Sequence record: PQ724394.1 | DNA from: a phage | DNA length: 64,000 bases | Direction: 5' to 3' (one strand) | Shown here: one piece after another, positions 43,192 through 56,594 of the stretch | Position numbering within the stretch: the stretch's first letter is position 1 | Layout: every line of letters starts with the position of its first letter | Translations under genes and position numbers: made by a program | Notes under the pieces: generated by a model | Told to the model about the DNA's origin: nothing | The model's database searches: none | What the model saw: the letters and a program-made list of their open reading frames with translations, nothing else

Positions 43192-43199
43192 TATAAATA
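43192..43199 (+). promoter_or_regulatory. T4-type late promoter (TATAAATA) for gene 34
   Basis: Exact TATAAATA about 33 nt upstream of the gene 34 ATG. Confidence 0.6.
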
Positions 43200-43231: not shown

Positions 43232-46200
43232 ATGGCTGATATTTTAAAACCTGCATTCCGTGCTACATCCGGACTCGATGCTGCGGGCGAGAAAGTTATC
43301 AATGTTGCCAAAGCCGATTACAATGTACTAGATGATGGCGTCAACGTTGAATTCTTTATAGATGAGAACACCATCCAGGCGTACGACGAGACGCGCGGAT
43401 ATAAGAAAGGGTTTGCAGTAATCCATGACCAACGTATTTGGGTTGCTCAACGTGATATCGCTGCACCAGCCGGAACTTTTGTACCTGGTTATTGGACCGC
43501 TACCCGTACTGACCCTAAATGGATTACAGTAGCATCTCCTACGCGCCAGTTGGCTTCCGGTGAATATATTGCGGTGGACTCAGCTGCTAGCTTTACTACA
43601 TTTACTCTGCCTCCTAACCCTACTGATGGTGATACCATTGTAATCAAGGATATCGGCGGCCGTGTAGGTTATAATGAAATCAAGGTTCAATCTAGTTCTG
43701 CTCCAGGCGGTGGTAATCAGAAAATTGTTCGTTTTGGTAACCAGTTCTCTGAAACTCTGATAACCAAACCTTTTTCTTATAACATGCTTATCTTTGCTAA
43801 CCGCCTTTGGCATTTCTGGGAAGCCGGTAACGAAGAACGTGGTATTCGTGTAGAGCCTAACACTGCACAGTTCCAAGCTCAAGCGGGTGATAACGTTTTA
43901 CGTCGTTATACTTCAGGTGCAGTAATTAAATTTACTCTTCCTAAGTATGCGAACCAAGGTGACATGGTTAAAACCGTAGATATCGATGGTCTTGGAAGTA
44001 AGTTCCACTTAATCGTTGAAACCTTTGATGCATCATCTTCATTGGGTAAGCCTGGTCAGCATAGCATGGAATTCCGTACCTCTGGTGATGGGTTCTTTGT
44101 TTATAACTCTGTTGAAAAAGTGTGGTATGTTTGGGACGGCGACCGTCAAACTCGTCTGCGTGTTATTCGTGATGACGTAGAACTTTTGGCTAACGAAAGT
44201 ATTATTGTTTTTGGTCCTAATAACACAACTCCACAAACTATTAATATCACTTTACCTACTAACGTAGCACAAGGCGATACTATTAAAATCGCATTGAACT
44301 ATCTTCGTAAAGCACAGACAGTAAATATTAAGGCTGCTGTAGGTGATAAAATTGCTTCTTCGGTTCAATTGCTTCAGTTCCCTAAACGTTCCGAATATCC
44401 ACCAGATACTGAATGGGTGTTGAATGATGTATTGACCTTTAATGGCAATATAAGTTATACCCCGGTTATTGAACTGAGTTATATCGAAGACACCACTACA
44501 GGTGCTAAATATTGGGTTGTTGCCCAGAACGTTCCTACGGTAGAACGTGTGGATTCTAAGGATGATTTAACTCGTGCTCGTCTTGGTGTTATTGCCCTTG
44601 CGTCTCAGACCCAGGCTAACGTTGACCATGAAAATAATCCTGAAAAAGAACTTGCAATTACTCCTCAGACCTTAGCCAATCGTGTTGCCACTGAAACTCG
44701 TCGTGGTATTGCTCGTATTGCTACAACTGCTCAGGTAAACCAAGACACCACTTTCGCTTTCCAGGATGATTTGATTATTTCTCCTAAGAAATTAAACGAA
44801 CGTACTGCAACCGAAACTCGTCGTGGTGTAGCTGAAATTGCTACGCAACAGGAAACTGATGCTGGTGTTGACGATACCACCATTATTACTCCTAAGAAGC
44901 TACAGACGCGCCAGGGCACTGAAAGTCTTTCAGGTATTGTAAAATATACCTCTACGGTAGATACCACTCCTGCGACTGCTAGGGACACTGTAGGTACTAA
45001 CGTTTATAATAAGAACGTAGGCAATTTGGTTATTTCTCCTAAAGCTTTAGACCAATATAAAGCTACTCAAGCCCAACAAGGTACGGTATATCTTTCTACC
45101 CAATCAGAAGTTAATACTGGACAATCTGCTAGTGGATTTGCTAACAGTGCGGTTTCTCCTGAAACGTTGCATGCTCGTGTGGCTCTTGATACTCGTACAG
45201 GGTTAATTGAAATTGCTACGCAACAGGAAACTGATACTGGAACTGATTATACTCGTGCGGTAACGCCTAAGACGTTAAATGATAGGAAAGCTACGGAAGG
45301 ATTGACTGGTATTGCTAGAATTGCAACCCAGGTAGAATTTGATGCAGGCACGTTAGATAATGTTATTTCAACTCCGTTGAAAATTAAAACAAGACTTAAT
45401 GATACTGCTAGAACTTCTGTCTCAGCAGCCAGCGGTTTGATTGAATCAGGAACCTTATGGAACCATTATACACTAGATATTAGAGAAGCAAATGAGACTC
45501 AACGTGGTACCGCTCGTCTGGCTACCCAGACCGAAGTCAATGTTGGCACTGATGACAAAACCATCATCACTCCTTTGAAATTACACTCTAAAAAATCTAC
45601 TGAAAGTTCTGAAGGTATTATTCGTGTTGCAACGAATACCGAAACCACTGCAGGAACTTCTAAAGTTCTGGCTGTAAGCCCTTCTGGTTTAAAATATGTA
45701 GTACAGTCCGAAACCACTTGGGAAGCTACTGCACTTCGTCGTGGATTTGTTAAATTGACCGAAGGTGCTTTGACTTACTCAGGAAATAAAGTTACCGGTT
45801 CCGGTGTTAAATTTAACTCAGGTACAGGCCTTTATGAGAATGACGATACTGTTCTGAATGCGGCCAACTATCCTAAAACAGGTTATGCGGTTTCATCTTA
45901 TGAGATGAATAAAACTTTGCAGAACTTTTTACCTATAAATGCTACGGCTGTGAACTCTGAGAAATTGGATGGTCTGGATTCACTTCAGTTCATTCGTAGA
46001 GACGTCGACCAAACGGTTAATGGTTCTTTAACCCTGACCAAACAATTGAACCTGGCAGCCCCTCTGGTGTCTTCTAGTACTGCTACATTTACGGATGTTA
46101 CAGCTACTAATTCTACCTTTGGTACAGTGAATGTTGTTAACGGAACCAATAAATGGAAAATAACATCTCCATCTACTGGAACTACATTAACGATTGGCGA

Positions 46201-47200
46201 TACTACTAACGTATTGACATTAAACACTGCTACGGGTAATGTTGCTGCACTTAACAACCTTAGCGCTGGTAATGATGTTCAAGCCAAAAATAACTTTGTG
46301 TTAAATGGAAGAACTATCGCAACCACCACCGGTGAAGCTTCTGGTGCTACATTGTCTTTAGGCGATAATTCTCAGAACTTGGTACTTAAAACATTAGATG
46401 CAGGAAATATCGTAGCTAATGGTGGCGGTGCATTTAAAGTTCTTACCGAGAAAAACGCAGTAGAAATTGTAGACAGAAACTTTGTTAACCAAGCCGGTGA
46501 TACAATGTCCGGTGTACTCCGTGTGAATGCTCCGGTTCGTGTATTTGGTACTAAGCCTACATTAGCTTCTCAGGTTCCTACGGCAGAGACAGTTGGCTTC
46601 TGGTCTGTTGATATCAATGACGAGGCCACTTATAGTAAGTTCCCTGGTTATTGGACTATGAAGACCAAACGACAAGTTAATATTGACACGGTCCAAACTA
46701 AACCTGCTGGTGTTTCTGATGAGGTATGGAATGCTTCCGGTTGGTTAACAGAAACCGGTGCATTTAGTTCTCCGGCTATTCGTTATCGTAACGAAGACGG
46801 TAGTTTTGGTGATGAAGTTCTTGGTACGTCTGGTCAGAAATTACGTGGTGCTTGGTTTGATTATTCTGTTCGTGATAAGGAAGTTAAATATCCTGGTACA
46901 TTAACTCAGTTTGGCAATACGTTAGATTCATGTTATCAGGATTGGGTGTGCTATCCTACAGGACTGAATGGTGGTACTATTCGTTATACACGTACCTGGC
47001 AGAAGAATAAAAACGCATGGACCACGTTCTCTATGGTCTATACAGCAGATAACCCTCCTTCTGCGGAAGATGTTGGTGCACTGCCGGCAGATAACGCCAC
47101 AATGGGTAACATTACAATCCTCGATTGGTTGCGTATTGGTAACGTTCGCATTATTCCTGACCCAGTCACTAAATCCGTTAAGTTTGAGTGGATTGAATAA
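43232..47200 (+). CDS. 34: Long tail fibre proximal subunit gp34
   Basis: 1322 aa; repeated ETRRG(I/V)A(R/E)IAT motifs; T4 order. Confidence 0.85.
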   Translation: MADILKPAFRATSGLDAAGEKVINVAKADYNVLDDGVNVEFFIDENTIQAYDETRGYKKGFAVIHDQRIWVAQRDIAAPAGTFVPGYWTATRTDPKWITVASPTRQLASGEYIAVDSAASFTTFTLPPNPTDGDTIVIKDIGGRVGYNEIKVQSSSAPGGGNQKIVRFGNQFSETLITKPFSYNMLIFANRLWHFWEAGNEERGIRVEPNTAQFQAQAGDNVLRRYTSGAVIKFTLPKYANQGDMVKTVDIDGLGSKFHLIVETFDASSSLGKPGQHSMEFRTSGDGFFVYNSVEKVWYVWDGDRQTRLRVIRDDVELLANESIIVFGPNNTTPQTINITLPTNVAQGDTIKIALNYLRKAQTVNIKAAVGDKIASSVQLLQFPKRSEYPPDTEWVLNDVLTFNGNISYTPVIELSYIEDTTTGAKYWVVAQNVPTVERVDSKDDLTRARLGVIALASQTQANVDHENNPEKELAITPQTLANRVATETRRGIARIATTAQVNQDTTFAFQDDLIISPKKLNERTATETRRGVAEIATQQETDAGVDDTTIITPKKLQTRQGTESLSGIVKYTSTVDTTPATARDTVGTNVYNKNVGNLVISPKALDQYKATQAQQGTVYLSTQSEVNTGQSASGFANSAVSPETLHARVALDTRTGLIEIATQQETDTGTDYTRAVTPKTLNDRKATEGLTGIARIATQVEFDAGTLDNVISTPLKIKTRLNDTARTSVSAASGLIESGTLWNHYTLDIREANETQRGTARLATQTEVNVGTDDKTIITPLKLHSKKSTESSEGIIRVATNTETTAGTSKVLAVSPSGLKYVVQSETTWEATALRRGFVKLTEGALTYSGNKVTGSGVKFNSGTGLYENDDTVLNAANYPKTGYAVSSYEMNKTLQNFLPINATAVNSEKLDGLDSLQFIRRDVDQTVNGSLTLTKQLNLAAPLVSSSTATFTDVTATNSTFGTVNVVNGTNKWKITSPSTGTTLTIGDTTNVLTLNTATGNVAALNNLSAGNDVQAKNNFVLNGRTIATTTGEASGATLSLGDNSQNLVLKTLDAGNIVANGGGAFKVLTEKNAVEIVDRNFVNQAGDTMSGVLRVNAPVRVFGTKPTLASQVPTAETVGFWSVDINDEATYSKFPGYWTMKTKRQVNIDTVQTKPAGVSDEVWNASGWLTETGAFSSPAIRYRNEDGSFGDEVLGTSGQKLRGAWFDYSVRDKEVKYPGTLTQFGNTLDSCYQDWVCYPTGLNGGTIRYTRTWQKNKNAWTTFSMVYTADNPPSAEDVGALPADNATMGNITILDWLRIGNVRIIPDPVTKSVKFEWIE

Positions 47201-47208
47201 GAGGTATT

Positions 47209-48330
47209 ATGGAAAGATTTATGGCAGAATTTGGACAAGGATATGTCCAGGTTCCTACATTATCTGAAAACAATGCTGTAAGATATAAACTTAGTATAGC
47301 TGGTAGTTGTACTAAGTCTACCACAAAAGCATATGTTAAATTTCAAGATGGGGACTTCGGTCCCCAGAATTTTCAAAATGGACTAAACCTTATAGAAATT
47401 GATGTTAGTGCCGAACCTAAAGTGGTGGCTAACAAAACTTATAGCTTTACAAAAGATTTTGATGTTATCTCTGAAGCTTTTATTACTTACATAAGTTCAA
47501 TACCGGCCAATAGAATAGTTTGTTTAGTATCTTCCGGTAGATTAAATGCTTCACAAAATCTTATTGATTGGTTCCGTGCAGCAGGAAGTACCGCATTTCC
47601 ATCTAAATGGCTAATAGACCGCTTCGAGCCGTCTTATTCGGCCTTTTACGTGTCTGGTAGAAATACTATAGTGATGGAACACGTCCTTTATAATGATGGG
47701 GTGTTTGTTGAAGATGTTTCTACACCATTAGAAGTCGTTTTTGACGATATCAGTGATGTAGGCGGGACCGGGTATCCTATAAGAATAGTGGAAGATGAAA
47801 ACACTTATCTAAGTAATGGTGGAGAGGAAATAAAACGTTTCCCTACTGAATCTCCTACTACTCCTTGTGCCGATTATAACATGAAGCCAGGAGAATTCTT
47901 TTATCTTAAATTCCAAATGATGTGTGACCAGGAATTAAAAGATTTAGGGACTTCTCAAATGTCTGTTAGATTTTTTGATGCCTCAGGTGCTTTAACAGGG
48001 TCGGTTAATATGGAAGTTCCGCCTAATGTCCCTGCCGGGTCTTGGATGACTTTTGAGCGGGTAATTGAAGTTCCTGCTAATACGGAAACATTTACATTGT
48101 ATGCAAGAAAAACAGTGGCCGATGGAGTCGGTGGTGTACGTAATGTGATGTTTGGGGAAGTATCAGAGCCAGAATCTCAACCTAAATCGGCTGAATTTGG
48201 TGTAAACGGTATCCGTATGAATTTCGGTACTGAAACTAAGAATATGGGTACTACCATAGCCCAGTTATACGATAAAACAGGTACTAAACCAGGTCAGGTT
48301 TGGGTGTCTGAATTTAGAGAAAAATATTAA
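47209..48330 (+). CDS. 35: Long tail fibre hinge connector gp35
   Basis: 373 aa (T4 372), T4 order. Confidence 0.7.
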   Translation: MERFMAEFGQGYVQVPTLSENNAVRYKLSIAGSCTKSTTKAYVKFQDGDFGPQNFQNGLNLIEIDVSAEPKVVANKTYSFTKDFDVISEAFITYISSIPANRIVCLVSSGRLNASQNLIDWFRAAGSTAFPSKWLIDRFEPSYSAFYVSGRNTIVMEHVLYNDGVFVEDVSTPLEVVFDDISDVGGTGYPIRIVEDENTYLSNGGEEIKRFPTESPTTPCADYNMKPGEFFYLKFQMMCDQELKDLGTSQMSVRFFDASGALTGSVNMEVPPNVPAGSWMTFERVIEVPANTETFTLYARKTVADGVGGVRNVMFGEVSEPESQPKSAEFGVNGIRMNFGTETKNMGTTIAQLYDKTGTKPGQVWVSEFREKY

Positions 48331-48358
48331 GGAACCTTCGGGTTCCTTTTTCGTTTTC
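48331..48358 (+). terminator. Rho-independent terminator after gene 35 (cUUCGg hairpin plus U-run)
   Basis: ggaacc-ttcg-ggttcc followed by tttttcgtttt. Confidence 0.75.
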
Positions 48359-48405
48359 TACGGCCATAAATATATAAAAGGCTATAACTCCCAAAGGAAA
48401 CTCAA

Positions 48406-49053
48406 ATGGCAGATTTAAAATTAGGTTCTACAGCAGGAGGTTCGGTATTATGGCACCAAGGTAATTTTCCTTTAACGCCTGTATCAAATGACCTTCTTTA
48501 CAAAACGTATAAAGTTTACACCGAGTATAATAAACCTCAAGCAGTTGATAACGATTTCGTTTCAAAAGCTAACGGTGGTAATTATCAGAACAACGTGTAT
48601 TTTGAAAAAGGTTTGACCTTTAATGATACTAATGGATACGGTATTAAATTAGGAGCAAGAACTGGCGGAGCCCCGTTCACAGCTTCTTTCCGTATTAAAG
48701 GTGCTTTTGGGTATGAAACGGAAGATGGTACTCCGTTTGTGATATTTGACCCAAATACAACAGTTGGTGCTAAACGTCTTACCGTAATGGGTGATTCATT
48801 ATTCCGTCAAGTATATGATGAATCAGGACGCGTATTCAGCCCAGGCAACACCCCTACTAAAGCTCAAGTTGGATTGCCATTAGTAGATAACGCAAAACAG
48901 GTCCAAATAAATAATACTAATATGCAAACAATGACTGGGGTACTTGCGGCTCCTAACTTCATTTCATTAAATCCGGCCTCTGACGCAGGACATGTTCCGC
49001 GTTTTGACCAGATTGTTCAAAAAGATTCTATCCAAGATTTTGGTTATTATTAA
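48406..49053 (+). CDS. 36: Long tail fibre distal connector gp36
   Basis: 215 aa (T4 221), T4 order. Confidence 0.7.
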   Translation: MADLKLGSTAGGSVLWHQGNFPLTPVSNDLLYKTYKVYTEYNKPQAVDNDFVSKANGGNYQNNVYFEKGLTFNDTNGYGIKLGARTGGAPFTASFRIKGAFGYETEDGTPFVIFDPNTTVGAKRLTVMGDSLFRQVYDESGRVFSPGNTPTKAQVGLPLVDNAKQVQINNTNMQTMTGVLAAPNFISLNPASDAGHVPRFDQIVQKDSIQDFGYY

Positions 49054-49061
49054 GAGGCATT

Positions 49062-52000
49062 ATGGCTACTTTAAAACAGATACAATTTAAAAGAAGTAAA
49101 GTAGCTGGTGTACGTCCTACGCCAGCGCAGTTGGCTGAAGGCGAGCTGGCTATTAACTTAAAAGACCGTTTGTTATTTACTAAAGATGATACTGGAGCGA
49201 TTATCGACCTTGGCTTTGCTAAAGGTGGTAATATTGACGGTAACGTTGTTCATAAAGGAAATTATAATCAAACTGGGGATTACACCCTAAATGGTACCTT
49301 TACCCAAACCGGCGATTTTAATTTAACCGGTATTGCTCGTGTAACTCGTGATATTATTGCCGCAGGTCAGATAATGACCCATGGTGGGGAACTTATTTCC
49401 AAGAGCGCCTCAACTTCTCACCTTCGATTCTTTGATGGCAGTGACCGTGAACGTGGTATTATCTTTTCTCCTAATAATGCAGGAGCAACCAACCAAGTAG
49501 TTAATATTCGCGTACAAGATTATTCTACCGCAGGCGAAAGCACTTATGCATTTTCAGGCAATGGTTTGTTCACTTCACCTGAAGTATCAGCATGGAAATC
49601 TATTTCGTCTCCACAAATTCTGACCGATAAAGTTATTACAAACGGGAAGAAGACCGGCGATTATGATATCTATTCATTGGCCGATAATACCCCATTGGCA
49701 GAAAGTGAAACAGCTATTAACCATCTCCGTGTTATGCGAAATGCTGTAGGCGCGGGTATATTTCACGAAGTTAAAGATAATGACGGAATAACCTGGTATG
49801 CCGGCGACGGCTTAGAAGCTTATCTTTGGTCATTTACCTGGTCCGGTGGATTGAAAGCAGGCCATTCTATTTCCGTAGGCACCCCAGGTAACTCTAAAGG
49901 ATATTCTGAATTAGGAAATGCTTCAATTGCTCTTGGCGATAATGACACCGGGCTAAAATGGCATCAGGATGGATATTATTTCAGCGTTAATAACGGCACA
50001 AGAACTTTCCTGTACGGCCCAGCAGAAACCACCAGTCTTAGAAAAATGGTTATGGGGTATTCTGTAAACGGTACCGATTTAACCACTCCTCCGGCGGAAA
50101 ACTATGCTTTGGCTACTGTTGTCACTTATCATGATAATAACGCATATGGCGATGGCCAAACTCTTTTAGGTTATTACCAAGGCGGCAATTATCACCACTA
50201 TTTCCGTGGTAAAGGTACTACAAACGTTAACACTGCTGGCGGTTTGTTAGTGACTCCTGGTAATATTGATGTTGTTGGTGGTTCTGTTAATATCGATGGT
50301 AGAAATAATGCTTCTACGCTGATGTTTAGAGGTAACACAACTGGTAGTAGTTCAGTTGATAATATGACAATTTCTGTATGGGGTAATACGTTTACTAATC
50401 CTAGTGTAGGTAATCGTAAAAACGTTATGGAAATTTCTGACGCAACTAGTTGGATGAGTTATATTCAAAGACTTACTACTGGTGAAGTAGAAATGAACGT
50501 CAATGGTTCATTTGAATCATCCGGTGTTACTGCTGGAAATAGAGGAGTTCACACAACAGGCGAAATTTCGTCTGGAGCAGTAAATGCGCTTCGCATTTGG
50601 AATGCAGATTATGGAGCCATTTTTAGACGTTCAGAAGGCAGTCTTCATATTATTCCAACTGCTTACGGTGAAGGTAAAAATGGTGATATCGGACCACTTC
50701 GTCCATTTAGTTTGGCTTTAGATACCGGTAAGGTTGTTATTCCTGACCTAGATTTGAGTTATGCTTCTTTTGCAGCAAACGGTTATATTAAATTCGGTGG
50801 ACATGGTGCAGGTGCAGGCGGTTACGATATTCAATATGCACAAGCAGCTCCTGTTTTCCAAGAAATTGATGATGACGCGGTAAGTAAATATTATCCTATT
50901 GTTAAGCAGAAATTCTTACAAGGAAAAGCTGTTTGGTCTTTAGGTACTGAAATTAATTCCGGGACTTTTGTTTTACACCATCTTAAAGAAGACGGGACTG
51001 AAGGTCATACCTCAAGATTTAATGCTGATGGTACAGTTAACTTCCCTGATAACGTGCAGGTTGGTGGCGGTGAAGCTACTATTGCTCGAAACGGTAATAT
51101 CTGGTCTGATATTTGGAAAACGTTTACTTCAGCAGGCGATGTAACTAATATTCGCGATGCCATTGCTACTCGTGTTTCTAAAGAAGGCGACACGATGACC
51201 GGCCGTTTAACCATCAATGCAAACTCGGATGCTATTGTTATTAACAGTGCTGAAACCCAATCTGGTTATGTGAAAGGACAAAAAGCTGGTGTTGATAACT
51301 GGTATATAGGCAATGGCGGCGCTGATAATGCCCTATCGTTTTATAGTTTCCAAACTAATTCAGGCGTTAATATTCATAATACCGGGGAAATTTCTTTAGC
51401 CCCCCAAGGGTCGGATACTTTTTATTTTAATAGGGACCGTCTTTATATAAAGGGTTCACAATGGGCTGCACATCAGGCTGGCGATTGGGGAAACCAATGG
51501 AAGCAAGAAGCCCCTGTGTTTGTAGATTTTGGTAATGTTGGTAATGATAGTTATTATCCGATTATCAAAGGAAAATCTGGTATTACTAACGAAGGATACG
51601 TATCCGGTGTAGATTTTGGTATGCGCCGCATCACTAATACATGGGCGCAAGGTATTATTCGTGTAGGTAACCAGGAAAACGGTTCCGACCCGCAAGCTAT
51701 CTATGAATTCCACTCTAATGGTACTTTTTATGCTCCGAGCTTACTTAAGAGCAACAGAGTATCGGCCGGCGGTGGAGACCCTGTATGGGGTGGGCCGTGT
51801 ATTGTTATCGGCGATAACGACACCGGATTGGTGTGGGAAGCGGACGGTATTTTCAACGCATATGCAAACGGTCAAGGGGTGTTTAGTTTTAGAGCCGGAC
51901 TTGCCCAGACATTTGGTAACGTTAACTTACACTGTAATGCGGGTATGTATGTTCGTGATAACATCGATGTTAACGACGTTTATATTCGTTCTGATATTCG

Positions 52001-52307
52001 TTGTAAGTCGGAAATTAAGCTTATAGAGAATGCCCAAGAGAAATCTAAACTCTTAGGTGGTTATACTTATCTGCTTAAAAACTCTGTCACAGATGAAGTT
52101 AAACCATCTGCAGGTTTAATTGCTCAGGAAGTTCAAGAAGTATTGCCTGAACTTGTGACTGAAGATAAAGAGACCGGCTTACTTCGTTTAAACTATAACG
52201 GTATTATCGGTTTAAATACTGCTACTATCAACGAGCATACTGATGAAATCAAGGAATTGAAATCTGAAATTGCTGAGTTGAAAGCATTAATTAAATCATT
52301 ATTATAA
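49062..52307 (+). CDS. 37: Long tail fibre distal subunit gp37 with C-terminal intramolecular chaperone (S74-like) domain
   Basis: 1081 aa; C-terminal about 105 aa (from ~51990) carry [10 protein letters not shown] and [15 protein letters not shown] signatures of autoproteolytic chaperone domains. Confidence 0.8.
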
Positions 52308-52311
52308 GAAA

Positions 52312-52325
52312 GGGCCTTCGGGCCC
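52312..52325 (+). promoter_or_regulatory. cUUCGg hairpin between genes 37 and 38
   Basis: gggcc-ttcg-ggccc immediately before the gene 38 RBS (ggagg). Confidence 0.45.
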
Positions 52326-52336
52326 TGGAGGTTTTT

Positions 52337-53116
52337 ATGGCAGTAGTAGGAATTCCTGGTTGGATTGGAACTTCGGCCGTTGCGGAAACAGGCCAACGCT
52401 GGATGTCAGCAGCTTCTAGAGAATTACGTCTAGGGAACCCATCTTGGATGTCGCAATTTGCTGGTAGGTCTCGTGAGATTATTCATACCCTTGGAGCGGA
52501 CCACAACTTCAACGGGCAATGGTTTAGAGACCGTTGTTTTGAAGCCGGCGGTGCTCCTATAGTGTTTAATATCACAGGCGACTTAGTATCATATACTAAA
52601 GATGTTCCGTTGTTCTTTATGTACGGTGATACCCCTAACGAATATGTTACTTTGAATATTCATGGTGGTGTTCATATGTGGGGCCGAGGTGGCAACGGTA
52701 CAGTAAATGGAAGCCCAGGCACTAATGGTGGTGACGTAATCCAAAATGATATTGGTGGACGACTTCGCATTTGGAACTATGGTGTGATAGCCTCCGGCGG
52801 TGGCGGCGGCGGTGGCGTATCATTACAGAATAGTTGGCCTGCAAATTCTACAGCAGGTGGCGGTGGCGGCAGACCATTTGGTCTCGGCGGCGGTGGTGTT
52901 AATTGGCCAGGCGGCAATGCTAGTTATGTTGGTCCAGGTGGCGGTGGTAATACAAGCCAATTTGGCGCTGGCAATGGTGGTGATGCTGGAGGTTGGGGCG
53001 GAGACGGATGGGGTAGTAACTTATCCAGGTCAGGTGGTGGTGCTCCTGGTAGAGCAGTATTCGGTTCCTCCCCATCATGGGGCGCTACAGGCACTATCTA
53101 CGGCTCTTGGTTATAA
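52337..53116 (+). CDS. 38: T2-type receptor-recognising adhesin gp38 (glycine-rich motifs)
   Basis: 259 aa; C-terminal half has repeated poly-Gly blocks (GGGGGGVS…[14 protein letters not shown]…GPGGGGN…) separated by short variable segments. Confidence 0.8.
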
Positions 53117-53132
53117 TACGAAAGTATTAAAT

Positions 53133-53140
53133 TATAAATA
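53133..53140 (+). promoter_or_regulatory. T4-type late promoter (TATAAATA) for holin gene t
   Basis: Exact TATAAATA about 19 nt upstream of the t start. Confidence 0.55.
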
Positions 53141-53158
53141 TCTTTAAAGGAGAAAAGT

Positions 53159-53812
53159 ATGGAACCAAAAGTAGGATTTTCATTATCAGACCTACTTTTT
53201 GGACTTCTTGATAGAATTTTTAAAGATACTTCTTCCGGGAAAGTAGTTTTTTCCCGGGTCCTAGTCGTAATATTATTGTTCTTTATGGCATTAGTTTGGT
53301 ATAAAGGCGAGCATATTCTAAACTTTTATAAAGAGACAACTTATGCCTCTTATACTGAAATGATTAGACAAGACCAGGACAATAGATTTAAAATTGCGGC
53401 TATCGAGCAGCTCCGAATAGTGCATTCTTCTTCAGGCGCAGACTTCACAGCAATATATTCTTTTAGGCCGACCAACATGAATTATTTTGTGGACATGGTT
53501 GCTTATGAGGGTAAATTACCGGAAACGGTAGACGCAAAAAATACGGGAGGATTTCCGATTGACAAAACGTCAGTAGAGTATATGGCGGGAGTTAACGGGA
53601 ACTATTTTGAATCATCTACTGAATCTGTGTTTCTCCCTACAAAGGAGAAAACCCATTTCACTTATATGTTTTCATGCCCGTTTTTTAATTTGGATAACAT
53701 CTATGCCGGCTCGATATCATTATACTGGTATGACATCAAACCGGATTTAGGATTTCCTAGACTTTCGTCTATGTGTGGTCAGGCCGGGAGGACATTAGGT
53801 CGAACTCGTTAA
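53159..53812 (+). CDS. t: Holin / lysis inhibition protein T
   Basis: 217 aa; matches T4 T (single TM VLVVILLFFMALVWY, …FSCPFFNLDNIYAGSISLYWY…). Confidence 0.85.
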   Translation: MEPKVGFSLSDLLFGLLDRIFKDTSSGKVVFSRVLVVILLFFMALVWYKGEHILNFYKETTYASYTEMIRQDQDNRFKIAAIEQLRIVHSSSGADFTAIYSFRPTNMNYFVDMVAYEGKLPETVDAKNTGGFPIDKTSVEYMAGVNGNYFESSTESVFLPTKEKTHFTYMFSCPFFNLDNIYAGSISLYWYDIKPDLGFPRLSSMCGQAGRTLGRTR

Positions 53813-54142: not shown

Positions 54143-54394
54143 CTATTCTTCTAGATTGTACACATGATTTTTCATCCGTACAACATATTCCTGATACATT
54201 TCTTCAATAGGTTCCTGGAACTTAAAATCAGCTCCTAGGAATTCCTCAAAGCACTCCTGCTCACGTGTACGCATACCTGTTACGGTATTCTCTAAGTTAT
54301 GACTCATAGCCTTTACCCTTATGTTTCTGCTTACGCTTAGACTCTTTAAAATTTTTCTTCTTGTCCTTATGGACCGAAGCCTTATTGAAATCAT
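54143..54394 (-). CDS. Hypothetical early protein
   Basis: 83 aa ORF in asiA-motA interval. Confidence 0.35.
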   Translation of the reverse strand: MISIRLRSIRTRRKILKSLSVSRNIRVKAMSHNLENTVTGMRTREQECFEEFLGADFKFQEPIEEMYQEYVVRMKNHVYNLEE

Positions 54395-55860: not shown

Positions 55861-56493
55861 TTAAATTGCGTTGGTTACGGTTTTGATAACTTCAGATGAT
55901 ACGTTTTGGAAGTCGATATAAGTATTCTTACCACCAGTCTTAATCTTAACATCAAGATTCAAGGAAGTAAACACTTGTTTTTCTTTATCAGTCATATTAT
56001 AACCGAAGATACGCATCATTCCGTCACGACGGACTTCGATTTGACGAATACCGTTGGTACGTTTAGCGAATCGAACTTCAAGATTGCTACGGTTTTCAGC
56101 GATTTCACGAATCTCGATACGGTCTTCTAACAAAGATTTAACTTCATCAGCCAATACCACCATTTCAGGAGTAACACCACGCGAACTGCGAGTTTTACGT
56201 TTTTCCAACATCTCTGGAGCATTTTCAGAAGCGAACAGGTCAGCAGCTTTTTGAACTAGGTCCATTGCTTCACCCGTAGCCACCAGTCCATCACCAGATT
56301 TTTCGATGAATCCTTTCTTAATCAATACACCGATGTTAGAGTTAACTACCGCTGCACTAAATTGTTCACTCAGGGCTTCACGGACTTCGCCTGAAGTGAT
56401 GAAGTTATTCTTGATGATATGTACTAAGATAGAAGCCGTTTTTTCATTCAGGACGTCTTCAGAAGCTTTGATGATATAAGTAATTTTAGACAT
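55861..56493 (-). CDS. motA: Middle transcription activator MotA
   Basis: 211 aa from ATG 56493 (MSKITYIIKASEDVLNEKTA…), matches T4 MotA; the ORF-track start is an upstream TTG. Confidence 0.85.
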   Translation of the reverse strand: MSKITYIIKASEDVLNEKTASILVHIIKNNFITSGEVREALSEQFSAAVVNSNIGVLIKKGFIEKSGDGLVATGEAMDLVQKAADLFASENAPEMLEKRKTRSSRGVTPEMVVLADEVKSLLEDRIEIREIAENRSNLEVRFAKRTNGIRQIEVRRDGMMRIFGYNMTDKEKQVFTSLNLDVKIKTGGKNTYIDFQNVSSEVIKTVTNAI

Positions 56494-56527
56494 TTTAATC
56501 TCCGATAACCATTTATTTGATAGGTCT

Positions 56528-56556
56528 ATAGTATCATGTTTAAAGCAGAAGTAAAC
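56528..56556 (-). promoter_or_regulatory. T4-type early promoter for motA
   Basis: Minus strand GTTTAC-N17-TACTAT, about 35 nt upstream of motA ATG. Confidence 0.6.
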
Positions 56557-56594
56557 TTTATTAGAGCTCTTTTTCAAGAGCTCTAATAAAGTAC

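Follow-up and report, generated by a model that had tools for sequence, protein, structure and literature searches.

The window analysed here, a stretch of 64,000 nucleotides of phage DNA (sequence record PQ724394.1), carries at positions 49062-53116 the adjacent genes of gp37 and gp38, which very probably encode the host-recognising distal end of a long tail fibre of the T2 type, composed of a gp37 precursor with a C-terminal intramolecular chaperone (IMC) domain and a separate gp38 adhesin. The original prediction, made from the letters alone, had placed both genes in this interval, and two open reading frames (ORFs) occupy exactly these positions. Both ORFs are intact and of full length relative to their families, and a pseudogene or defective module was rejected on this ground. 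The source phage is a Dhakavirus, a JS10/JS98-like phage of E. coli, and its relatives JS10 and MN04 share about 96% nucleotide identity with it over positions 20000-44000 of the window. The analyses made gave no data contradicting a T2-type architecture. In T-even phages, host range is determined mainly by gp37 and gp38, and it is these two that are exchanged in the engineering of phages for therapeutic or diagnostic use. The arrangement is that of a textbook system and brings no new principle: the processing of T2 gp37 and the adhesin gp38 were already known in the 1980s, with structures available since 2018 and 2026. What is new here is only the allele, its recombinant combination and the receptor prediction.

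49062-52307, + strand: gene of gp37, the long tail fibre distal subunit precursor (1081 residues, 116.3 kDa; full-length match to PHROG 1699, 1319 bits)
52337-53116, + strand: gene of gp38, the T2-type receptor-recognising adhesin (259 residues, 26.2 kDa; Pfam GP38 and Gp38_N)
51789-51989, + strand: distal tip of gp37 (residues 910-976, ending in DVYIR; aligned with the gp37 tip of phage S16 in 6F45_A from residue 910)
51987-51992, + strand: predicted autoproteolytic site R976-S977 (S977 aligned with the serine that follows the S16 cut; position 1 of the Pfam S74 profile falls on residue 977)
51990-52304, + strand: IMC domain, Peptidase_S74 (gp37 residues 977-1081, 11.6 kDa; last 105 residues, with a helix from the 15-residue signature and a C-terminal coiled coil)

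On sequence and predicted structure, the last 105 residues of gp37 are assigned as a Peptidase_S74 IMC domain, located at the extreme C-terminus of a trimeric fibre homologue. Two signatures of autoproteolytic chaperones had been claimed for the last ~105 residues, and both were located. The first, of 10 residues, covers residues 977-986 (nucleotides 51990-52019), and the second, of 15 residues, covers residues 1018-1032 (nucleotides 52113-52157) and forms a helix. S977 is the first of a C-terminal stretch of exactly 105 residues. The Pfam profile Peptidase_S74 (PF13884) aligns over positions 1-58 of 58 with residues 977-1033 (E = 3.8e-12, 46.7 bits, gathering threshold 22). This E-value, together with those for the Pfam families GP38 and Gp38_N given below, places the gp37 and gp38 signatures beyond chance. 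In addition, residues 910-1080 align with the S16 gp37 construct (PDB 6F45_A, E = 3.6e-30). The sequence match to the eukaryotic MyRF ICA domain (7DC3) is weaker (E = 0.012); in that alignment S977 stands opposite an alanine at the conserved serine position, and the lysine is retained (stretch ADLRAK).

The fold of the domain was modelled with AlphaFold2 (AF2) as a monomer, using gp37 residues 930-1081 and an alignment of 23 homologues. The model contains a long C-terminal helix and has a predicted local distance difference test score (pLDDT) of 88-97 over residues 975-1081. Foldseek against the PDB returned significant matches of this model only to 7DC3 (E = 1.5e-5) and to the K1F endosialidase 3GW6 (E = 1.6e-3), with a probability of 1.00 each; both are matches of a monomer model, with template-modelling (TM) scores of just 0.44-0.55. 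The IMC of the K1F endosialidase and the ICA domain of MyRF resemble the gp37 domain in family, in predicted fold, in a Ser-x4-Lys element at the N-terminal edge and in closing off a trimeric fibre or spike at its C-terminus, whereas sequence identity is 12-22%. The endosialidase domain finishes a tailspike enzyme, whereas here the released IMC would uncover a docking site for a separate adhesin.

The putative catalytic dyad Ser977/Lys982 (nucleotides 51990-51992 and 52005-52007) lies in the stretch S977-D-I-R-C-K982, with the canonical S-x4-K spacing. The motif SDxRxK is present in 11/11 gp37 comparators. Moreover, 23 further homologues conserve D978, K982 and a G-x-IAQEV..PE.V motif, and a serine at the position equivalent to 977 is kept in all aligned homologues that span it except one. 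The homologue search with the C-terminal 152 residues gave only 22 short fragment proteins and no full-length fibres; these sufficed for the alignment, but the search has little bearing on the distribution of the domain.

The cut is predicted at the R976-S977 bond because of the alignment with the experimentally defined cleavage site of S16. For S16, a cut of gp37 between two serines, DLNVS^SDRRIKK, is documented, which releases 113 residues (PMC7917993), and for the fPS phages the equivalent junction DVYIR^SDGRLK was proposed as the cut (PMC7917993). The junction in this gp37 reads DVYIR^SDIRCK. Likewise, the C-terminus of T2 and T6 gp37 is reported to be removed proteolytically before gp38 caps the fibre (PMC3157838). 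By analogy with these homologues, gp37 is predicted to be cleaved at R976-S977, S977 acting as the nucleophile and K982 as the base. The calculated products of such a cut are a 104.7-kDa mature fibre subunit of 976 residues and an 11.6-kDa fragment, and residues 910-976 would serve as the docking surface for gp38 after IMC release.

In one homologue the serine is replaced by proline, which shows that some relatives can lose the nucleophile, and the S74 domain might accordingly be thought to be retained in the virion as an inactive relic or a terminal knob, with gp38 attached elsewhere or transiently. Such an arrangement is highly improbable for the present protein, in which Ser977 and Lys982 are both present at the canonical spacing and the junction DVYIR-SD matches those of S16 and the fPS phages. 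In addition, the IMC shows no difference from the one in JS98 (100% identity, at the nucleotide level over 52006-52305), and JS98 is infective and has a gp38 whose attachment domain is of the same type. In the S16 structure, gp38 sits on the very surface vacated by the IMC (PMC7917993).

Two sets of internal similarity were seen in gp37. The motif GDNDTGL occurs twice, at residues 292-298 and 917-923, and two APVF...YYPI(V/I)K segments, at residues 596-617 and 817-837, align to one and the same stretch of T4 gp37 (residues ~686-743). As judged from the sequence, these internal repeats indicate a duplicated shaft module.

52337-52474, + strand: N-terminal attachment domain of gp38, JS98 type (residues 1-46; W9, W22 and W37)
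52682-53113, + strand: polyglycine receptor-binding region of gp38 (residues 116-259)
52700-52717, + strand: predicted loop A of gp38, TVNGSP (residues 122-127)
52823-52852, + strand: predicted loop B of gp38, 10 residues (residues 163-172)
52892-52906, + strand: predicted loop C of gp38, GGVNW (residues 186-190)
52949-52963, + strand: predicted loop D of gp38, NTSQF (residues 205-209)
53006-53026, + strand: predicted loop E of gp38, GWGSNLS (residues 224-230)

Protein gp38 is classified by family membership and modelled fold as a T2-type adhesin, as the original prediction had proposed. The Pfam family GP38 (PF05268) matches residues 47-259 (E = 5.9e-81, 271.9 bits) and Gp38_N (PF21721) matches residues 1-42 (E = 7.1e-21, 74.4 bits), each against a cut-off of 25. 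Sequence matches in the PDB comprise the receptor-binding domain of PP01 gp38 (9V85, E = 4.4e-76) and S16 gp38 (6F45_D, E = 2e-51). The AF2 model of gp38 has a mean pLDDT of 86.2 and shows the β-helix and polyglycine-II sandwich expected of the family. It superposes on 9V85 with a TM score of 0.90 and a root-mean-square deviation of 1.5 Å, and on 6F45_D with E = 7e-22; Foldseek gave no further significant match in the PDB. Two properties of the models count against relying on them too heavily: the gp37 and gp38 models are monomers of proteins that act as a 3:1 complex, and the gp38 attachment domain was modelled poorly (pLDDT 50-71).

The glycine content of gp38 is 26% overall and 37% over residues 110-259. 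Residues 116-240 contain 12 runs of at least two glycines, including G7 at 154-160, G5 at 174-178, and G4 at both 184-187 and 201-204. Poly-glycine motifs flanking short variable segments had been named as the hallmark of T2-type adhesins, and the alignments of 11 and of 56 gp38 homologues bear this out, the glycine runs forming invariant columns and the segments between them varying. The invariant columns are 116-121, 154-158, 175-178, 182 and 185, and the near-invariant ones are 201, 212-215, 218, 221 and 235. Alternating glycine-rich motifs (GRM) and hypervariable segments (HVS) of this kind were defined in PMC3157838. The five receptor loops, A to E, were mapped from those of PP01 (PMC12892980) through a HMMER alignment to PP01.

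At the other end of the protein, W9, W22 and W37 are invariant in 11 gp38 homologues, including that of S16. Tryptophan 'prongs' are described as docking S16 gp38 on the gp37 tip (PMC7917993, citing Dunne 2018). A receptor-binding gp38 at the fibre tip of the virion has been shown for S16, PP01, T2 and T6 and in engineered swaps (PMC7917993; bioRxiv 10.64898/2026.04.02.716166). By homology, gp38 of this phage would also be carried on the virion, with a gp37:gp38 stoichiometry of 3:1.

The closest structural counterparts share the plan and differ in the details of recognition. The S16 gp37-gp38 complex (PDB 6F45) has the same gp37 tip, the self-cleaving S74 IMC and a monomeric gp38 made of a Trp attachment domain, a β-helix and a polyglycine-II sandwich. 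However, S16 gp38 shares just 49% of its residues over the whole protein and 50% over the receptor-binding domain, its loops differ and it binds Salmonella OmpC, whereas S16 gp37 is 27% identical, has a shorter shaft (749 residues) and carries the junction VS-SD in place of IR-SD. PP01 gp38 (9V85) is the best structural match, with 65% identity, but its receptor is OmpC of O157, and none of its five loops has the sequence found here, some of them being of another length as well.

The T2/T6 type of architecture, which had been claimed over that of T4, is supported at both proteins. In BLASTP, gp38 has no detectable similarity to T4 gp38 (best E = 1.1), and T4 gp37 aligns to residues 1-640 of this gp37 only. 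The C-terminal domains of T4 gp37 are Collar and Phage_fiber, whereas those of T2, S16 and the present gp37 are S74. A Pfam scan of this gp37 gave no Collar or Phage_fiber match, though T4 gp37 has both, and the PDB sequence search with gp37 listed no T4 gp37 chain among its matches. With T4, the locus shares its position, the hairpin between genes 37 and 38 and the N-terminal and middle shaft of gp37 (35% identity over residues 1-640). It differs in that the Collar/Phage_fiber needle of T4 gp37 itself binds OmpC/LPS (lipopolysaccharide) and has no S74, and T4 gp38 is an unrelated chaperone of 183 residues.

Several database records label the homologous gene 'distal long tail fiber assembly catalyst' or 'assembly chaperone', names inherited from T4, which would suit a T4-like arrangement with gp38 only as a released assembly chaperone and the gp37 tip as the receptor binder. 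That arrangement is scarcely credible here. The present gp38 belongs to the adhesin family over its full length and has the fold of an adhesin, and gp37 ends in S74 instead of a needle region. Moreover, homologous gp38 proteins occupy the fibre tip in the crystal structure 6F45, and exchanging them exchanges the receptor.

Under the T2-type reading, the following sequence of events is proposed. The gp37 protein would be made as a precursor of 1081 residues, in which the IMC would act as the nucleus from which the fibre trimerises and folds, starting at the C-terminus. The IMC would then remove itself by a Ser977/Lys982-catalysed cut of the R976-S977 bond, leaving a fibre of 976 residues with its flat ...DVYIR tip exposed. 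One gp38 monomer would dock on this tip via its attachment domain with W9, W22 and W37, and would stay with the virion to serve as adhesin. The C-terminal half of gp38 is predicted to form a polyglycine-II lattice from the invariant glycine-rich motifs, and five variable loops projecting from this lattice would bind an outer-membrane protein of the host.

The original prediction had named the variable segments of gp38 as the probable determinants of receptor specificity, a role demonstrated by experiment in close homologues (PMC3157838, PMC12032242, PMC12892980, bioRxiv 10.64898/2026.04.02.716166). Over residues 116-259, gp38 is 94-95% identical to JS10, MN04 and UGJNEcP3, 89-91% to Bas47, RB69, FL33 and fPS-2, and 73% to JS98. 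Identity is 49-58% to T6 (which binds Tsx), M1/FL08/AV119 (OmpA), T2 (FadL/OmpF) and S16 (OmpC). Within the OmpF group, dependence on OmpF was reported for Bas47 (PMC8594841) and for FL31, FL33 and FL34 (PMC12032242), the receptor of fPS-2 is OmpF plus LPS (PMC7917993), and both RB69 and RB51 require OmpF (PMC3157838). The gp38 of RB51 has the substitutions of RB69 in the receptor-binding region, and the substitution Q206L alone switches it from OmpF to OmpW (bioRxiv 10.64898/2026.04.02.716166). The equivalent of RB51 Q206 is Q208 here, and the OmpF-type glutamine is kept. The group formed by Bas47 (AlbertHofmann), RB69, RB51, FL31/FL33 and the Yersinia phage fPS-2 thus resembles the present gp38 in its glycine-rich motifs and in the glutamine at the switch position. 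Because five adhesins at 89-91% identity are OmpF-dependent by experiment and this glutamine is retained, OmpF is the best prediction, and gp38 probably recognises it, perhaps together with the LPS core by analogy with its relatives. The locus thereby provides an OmpF (possibly plus LPS core) receptor prediction for a Dhakavirus.

A number of observations pull away from OmpF. Of 17 differences from Bas47, seven fall within the 33 predicted loop residues (P = 0.002), namely S126, P168, A169, S171, N205, S227 and N228. Loop C is identical to those of Bas47 and RB51, from which one residue deviates in loop A, three in loop B, one in loop D and two in loop E. N205 adjoins the OmpF/OmpW switch position, and S227/N228 belong to loop E, the specificity loop of PP01. 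Furthermore, V198, A211 and S227 are absent from all seven closest homologues, and one or two loop substitutions can retarget gp38 adhesins (PMC3157838, bioRxiv 10.64898/2026.04.02.716166). Confidence in OmpF is therefore held at a moderate level, in view of the loop-enriched differences, the private residues V198, A211 and S227 and the known retargeting by few changes.

These observations equally feed a tentative alternative in which the architecture is the same and the receptor is OmpW or another outer-membrane protein, or else another loop variant of OmpF or another subset of hosts. The alleles TVNGSP in loop A, NTSQF in loop D and GWGSNLS in loop E, together with V198 and A211, would be the redirecting changes, concentrated in the loops as they are relative to OmpF-verified adhesins. 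Precedents for so small a cause are the single HVS3 substitution that moves RB51 from OmpF to OmpW and the few residues that change the receptor in SV76 compared with T2 and in PST compared with T6 (PMC3157838). For the closest receptor-binding domains, those of JS10, MN04 and UGJNEcP3, no receptor data were found in the literature, nor were any found for Dhakavirus phages in general. Set against this alternative are the 89-91% identity to OmpF-dependent adhesins compared with no more than 58% to adhesins directed at any other receptor, the OmpF-type glutamine at the switch position, and the published gp38 phylogenies, in which close relatives share a receptor. It is therefore possible and somewhat doubtful, and OmpF stays the preferred assignment. 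A more specific version, and a rather unlikely one, is that this natural chimera of a JS98-type attachment domain and a JS10/RB69-type receptor-binding domain, not sampled before, with V198, A211, S227 and the rarer NTSQF allele, might have shifted its specificity off canonical OmpF recognition. If true, such a shift, towards another porin such as OmpW or a different set of OmpF loop variants, would make the host range unpredictable from the nearest characterised relatives.

The origin of the module was mapped with 100-nucleotide windows for DNA and 50-residue bins for protein, and it proved to be mosaic. Taken as a whole, the module is most similar to JS98 at the nucleotide level (90%), and JS98 gp37 is the closest relative of this gp37, with 91.4% identity. 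Both gp36 and most of gp37 are JS98-like, and the last ~280 residues of gp37 are 96-100% identical to JS98. A patch within gp37 departs from this pattern.

50306-50705, + strand: mosaic patch in gp37 (residues ~415-548; 89-96% nucleotide identity to RB69/Bas47, 50-76% to JS98)

The patch coincides with a trimerisation domain resembling the C-terminus of gp34, matched by Pfam Gp34_trimer at residues 450-549 (E = 1.4e-7) and by PDB 4UXE/5NXF at residues 418-561. A second joint is located inside gp38, where the best match changes from JS98 to JS10 at around nucleotide 52500 (residue ~55), just after the attachment domain. From ~52500 through the holin gene the sequence is 95-100% JS10-like, and gp34 (99.5%) and the holin (98.6%) are JS10-like as well. 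With gp34 and holin of JS10 type and gp37 of JS98 type containing an RB69/Bas47 patch, the fibre block (43232-53812) thus combines pieces from three lineages or more.

In its attachment domain, gp38 is 98-100% identical to JS98 and UGJNEcP3 and 50% identical to JS10 and RB69. This domain is of the JS98 type and is thus paired with a gp37 tip of the JS98 type. According to a published rule, each gp37 C-terminal subtype is tied to one attachment-domain type while the specificity domain is exchanged (PMC3157838), and the present module conforms to it. RB69 and RB51 differ in having the other attachment-domain type (50% identity), matched to the other gp37 tip, YVRDVYVR-SD. Since the sequences were joined immediately behind the attachment domain, the tip, the IMC and the attachment domain travel together and the receptor-binding domain is exchanged, which makes the locus a clean natural example of modularity.

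JS98 (NC_010105) itself has the same gene order and intergenic hairpin, and its gp38 attachment domain is 98% identical. It differs in the gp38 receptor-binding domain, which is 73% identical with all HVS loops different, and in gp37 residues ~415-548, which are 46-76% identical because an RB69/Bas47-type domain is present there in this phage. The JS98 record labels the gp38 homologue 'T6-like tail fiber adhesin'. The exact gp37 and gp38 sequences were searched for in a collection of ~15 billion proteins, and neither was found.

A 303-residue database protein labelled E. coli (P0079) contains Peptidase_S74, GP38 and Gp38_N in one ORF. It looks like a fused or mis-called frame of a gp37 C-terminus and gp38, from a prophage-like or contaminating T-even contig.

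The two genes belong to a tail-fibre block with the following further members and signals.

43232-47200, + strand: gene of gp34, tail-fibre block
47209-48330, + strand: gene of gp35, proximal hinge connector, tail-fibre block
48406-49053, + strand: gene of gp36, distal hinge connector (PHROG 1425, E = 2.9e-57; 98% identical to JS98 gp36)
53159-53812, + strand: holin gene t, which closes the late tail-fibre block
48329-48348, + strand: UUCG hairpin with U-run, directly after the gp35 stop (folding free energy -11.4 kcal/mol, z -3.3)
48365-48372, + strand: late-promoter-like CATAAATA, 34 nucleotides upstream of gene 36 (one mismatch to the T4 late consensus TATAAATA)
52311-52326, + strand: intercistronic GC hairpin with a UUCG loop, GGGCC-UUCG-GGCCC, between the gp37 stop and the gp38 Shine-Dalgarno sequence
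52327-52331, + strand: Shine-Dalgarno sequence GGAGG of gp38, directly 3' of the intercistronic hairpin

The order 34-35-36-37-38-t on the + strand is the T-even layout and matches that of JS98, JS10, T2, T6, S16 and T4. The gp38 gene lies directly 3' of a gene 37 that ends in the IMC, separated from it by an intergenic gap of 29 nucleotides. The hairpin in this gap is found at the same position in 13/13 T-even phages compared, including T4 and S16, with compensatory changes in 3/5 pairs and 93% of cells paired. A role in mRNA stability and a role in tuning gp38 output relative to gp37 are both possibilities. At gathering thresholds, Rfam gave no match in the whole window, the 37/38 hairpin included, and the window contains no tRNAs.

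The hairpin at 48329-48348 looks like a terminator. As it is followed by CATAAATA upstream of gene 36, the sequence suggests that genes 36-37-38 form their own late transcription unit driven from CATAAATA, with the gp36 gene as its first member. The annotation of fPS-2 gives a late promoter at the same relative place. Exact copies of TATAAATA are found at 43192, before gene 34, and at 53133, before t. The exact motif is not enriched in the window (8 observed against 7.4 expected), and these two sites are meaningful by position only. Scans for sigma-70 promoters and terminators gave results at chance level.

The GC content rises to 0.50 at 52500-53147, compared with ~0.40 in the flanks, with a G-over-C skew of 0.26; both are due to the GGN glycine codons of gp38. 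The same GGN-rich coding sequence accounts for two spurious ORFs without family support, one in a + frame (52800-53147, 115 residues, rich in Gly/Ala/Val) and one antisense (52924-53094, rich in Pro). In a PHROG search, the six ORFs (56-115 residues) that occupy another frame or the opposite strand within 49062-53116 gave no match.

Elsewhere in the block, residues 57-130 of gp35 match the Pfam family ILEI ('Interleukin-like EMT inducer') with 28.6 bits against a gathering threshold of 27 (E = 2e-6). This match probably corresponds to the 'GG domain' reported as common to phage gp35 and the eukaryotic FAM3/POMGnT1 proteins. Downstream of t, the - strand carries asiA, genes of the arn region, motA and gene 52. 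The motA ORF (55861-56577, - strand) as listed begins at TTG, and the MotA family match starts only at residue 29; the true start is probably the ATG near 56493. Similarly, the ORF of 83 residues at 54143-54394 (- strand) is matched by a family of 53 residues at residues 30-81 only, and the real gene is probably shorter than this ORF.

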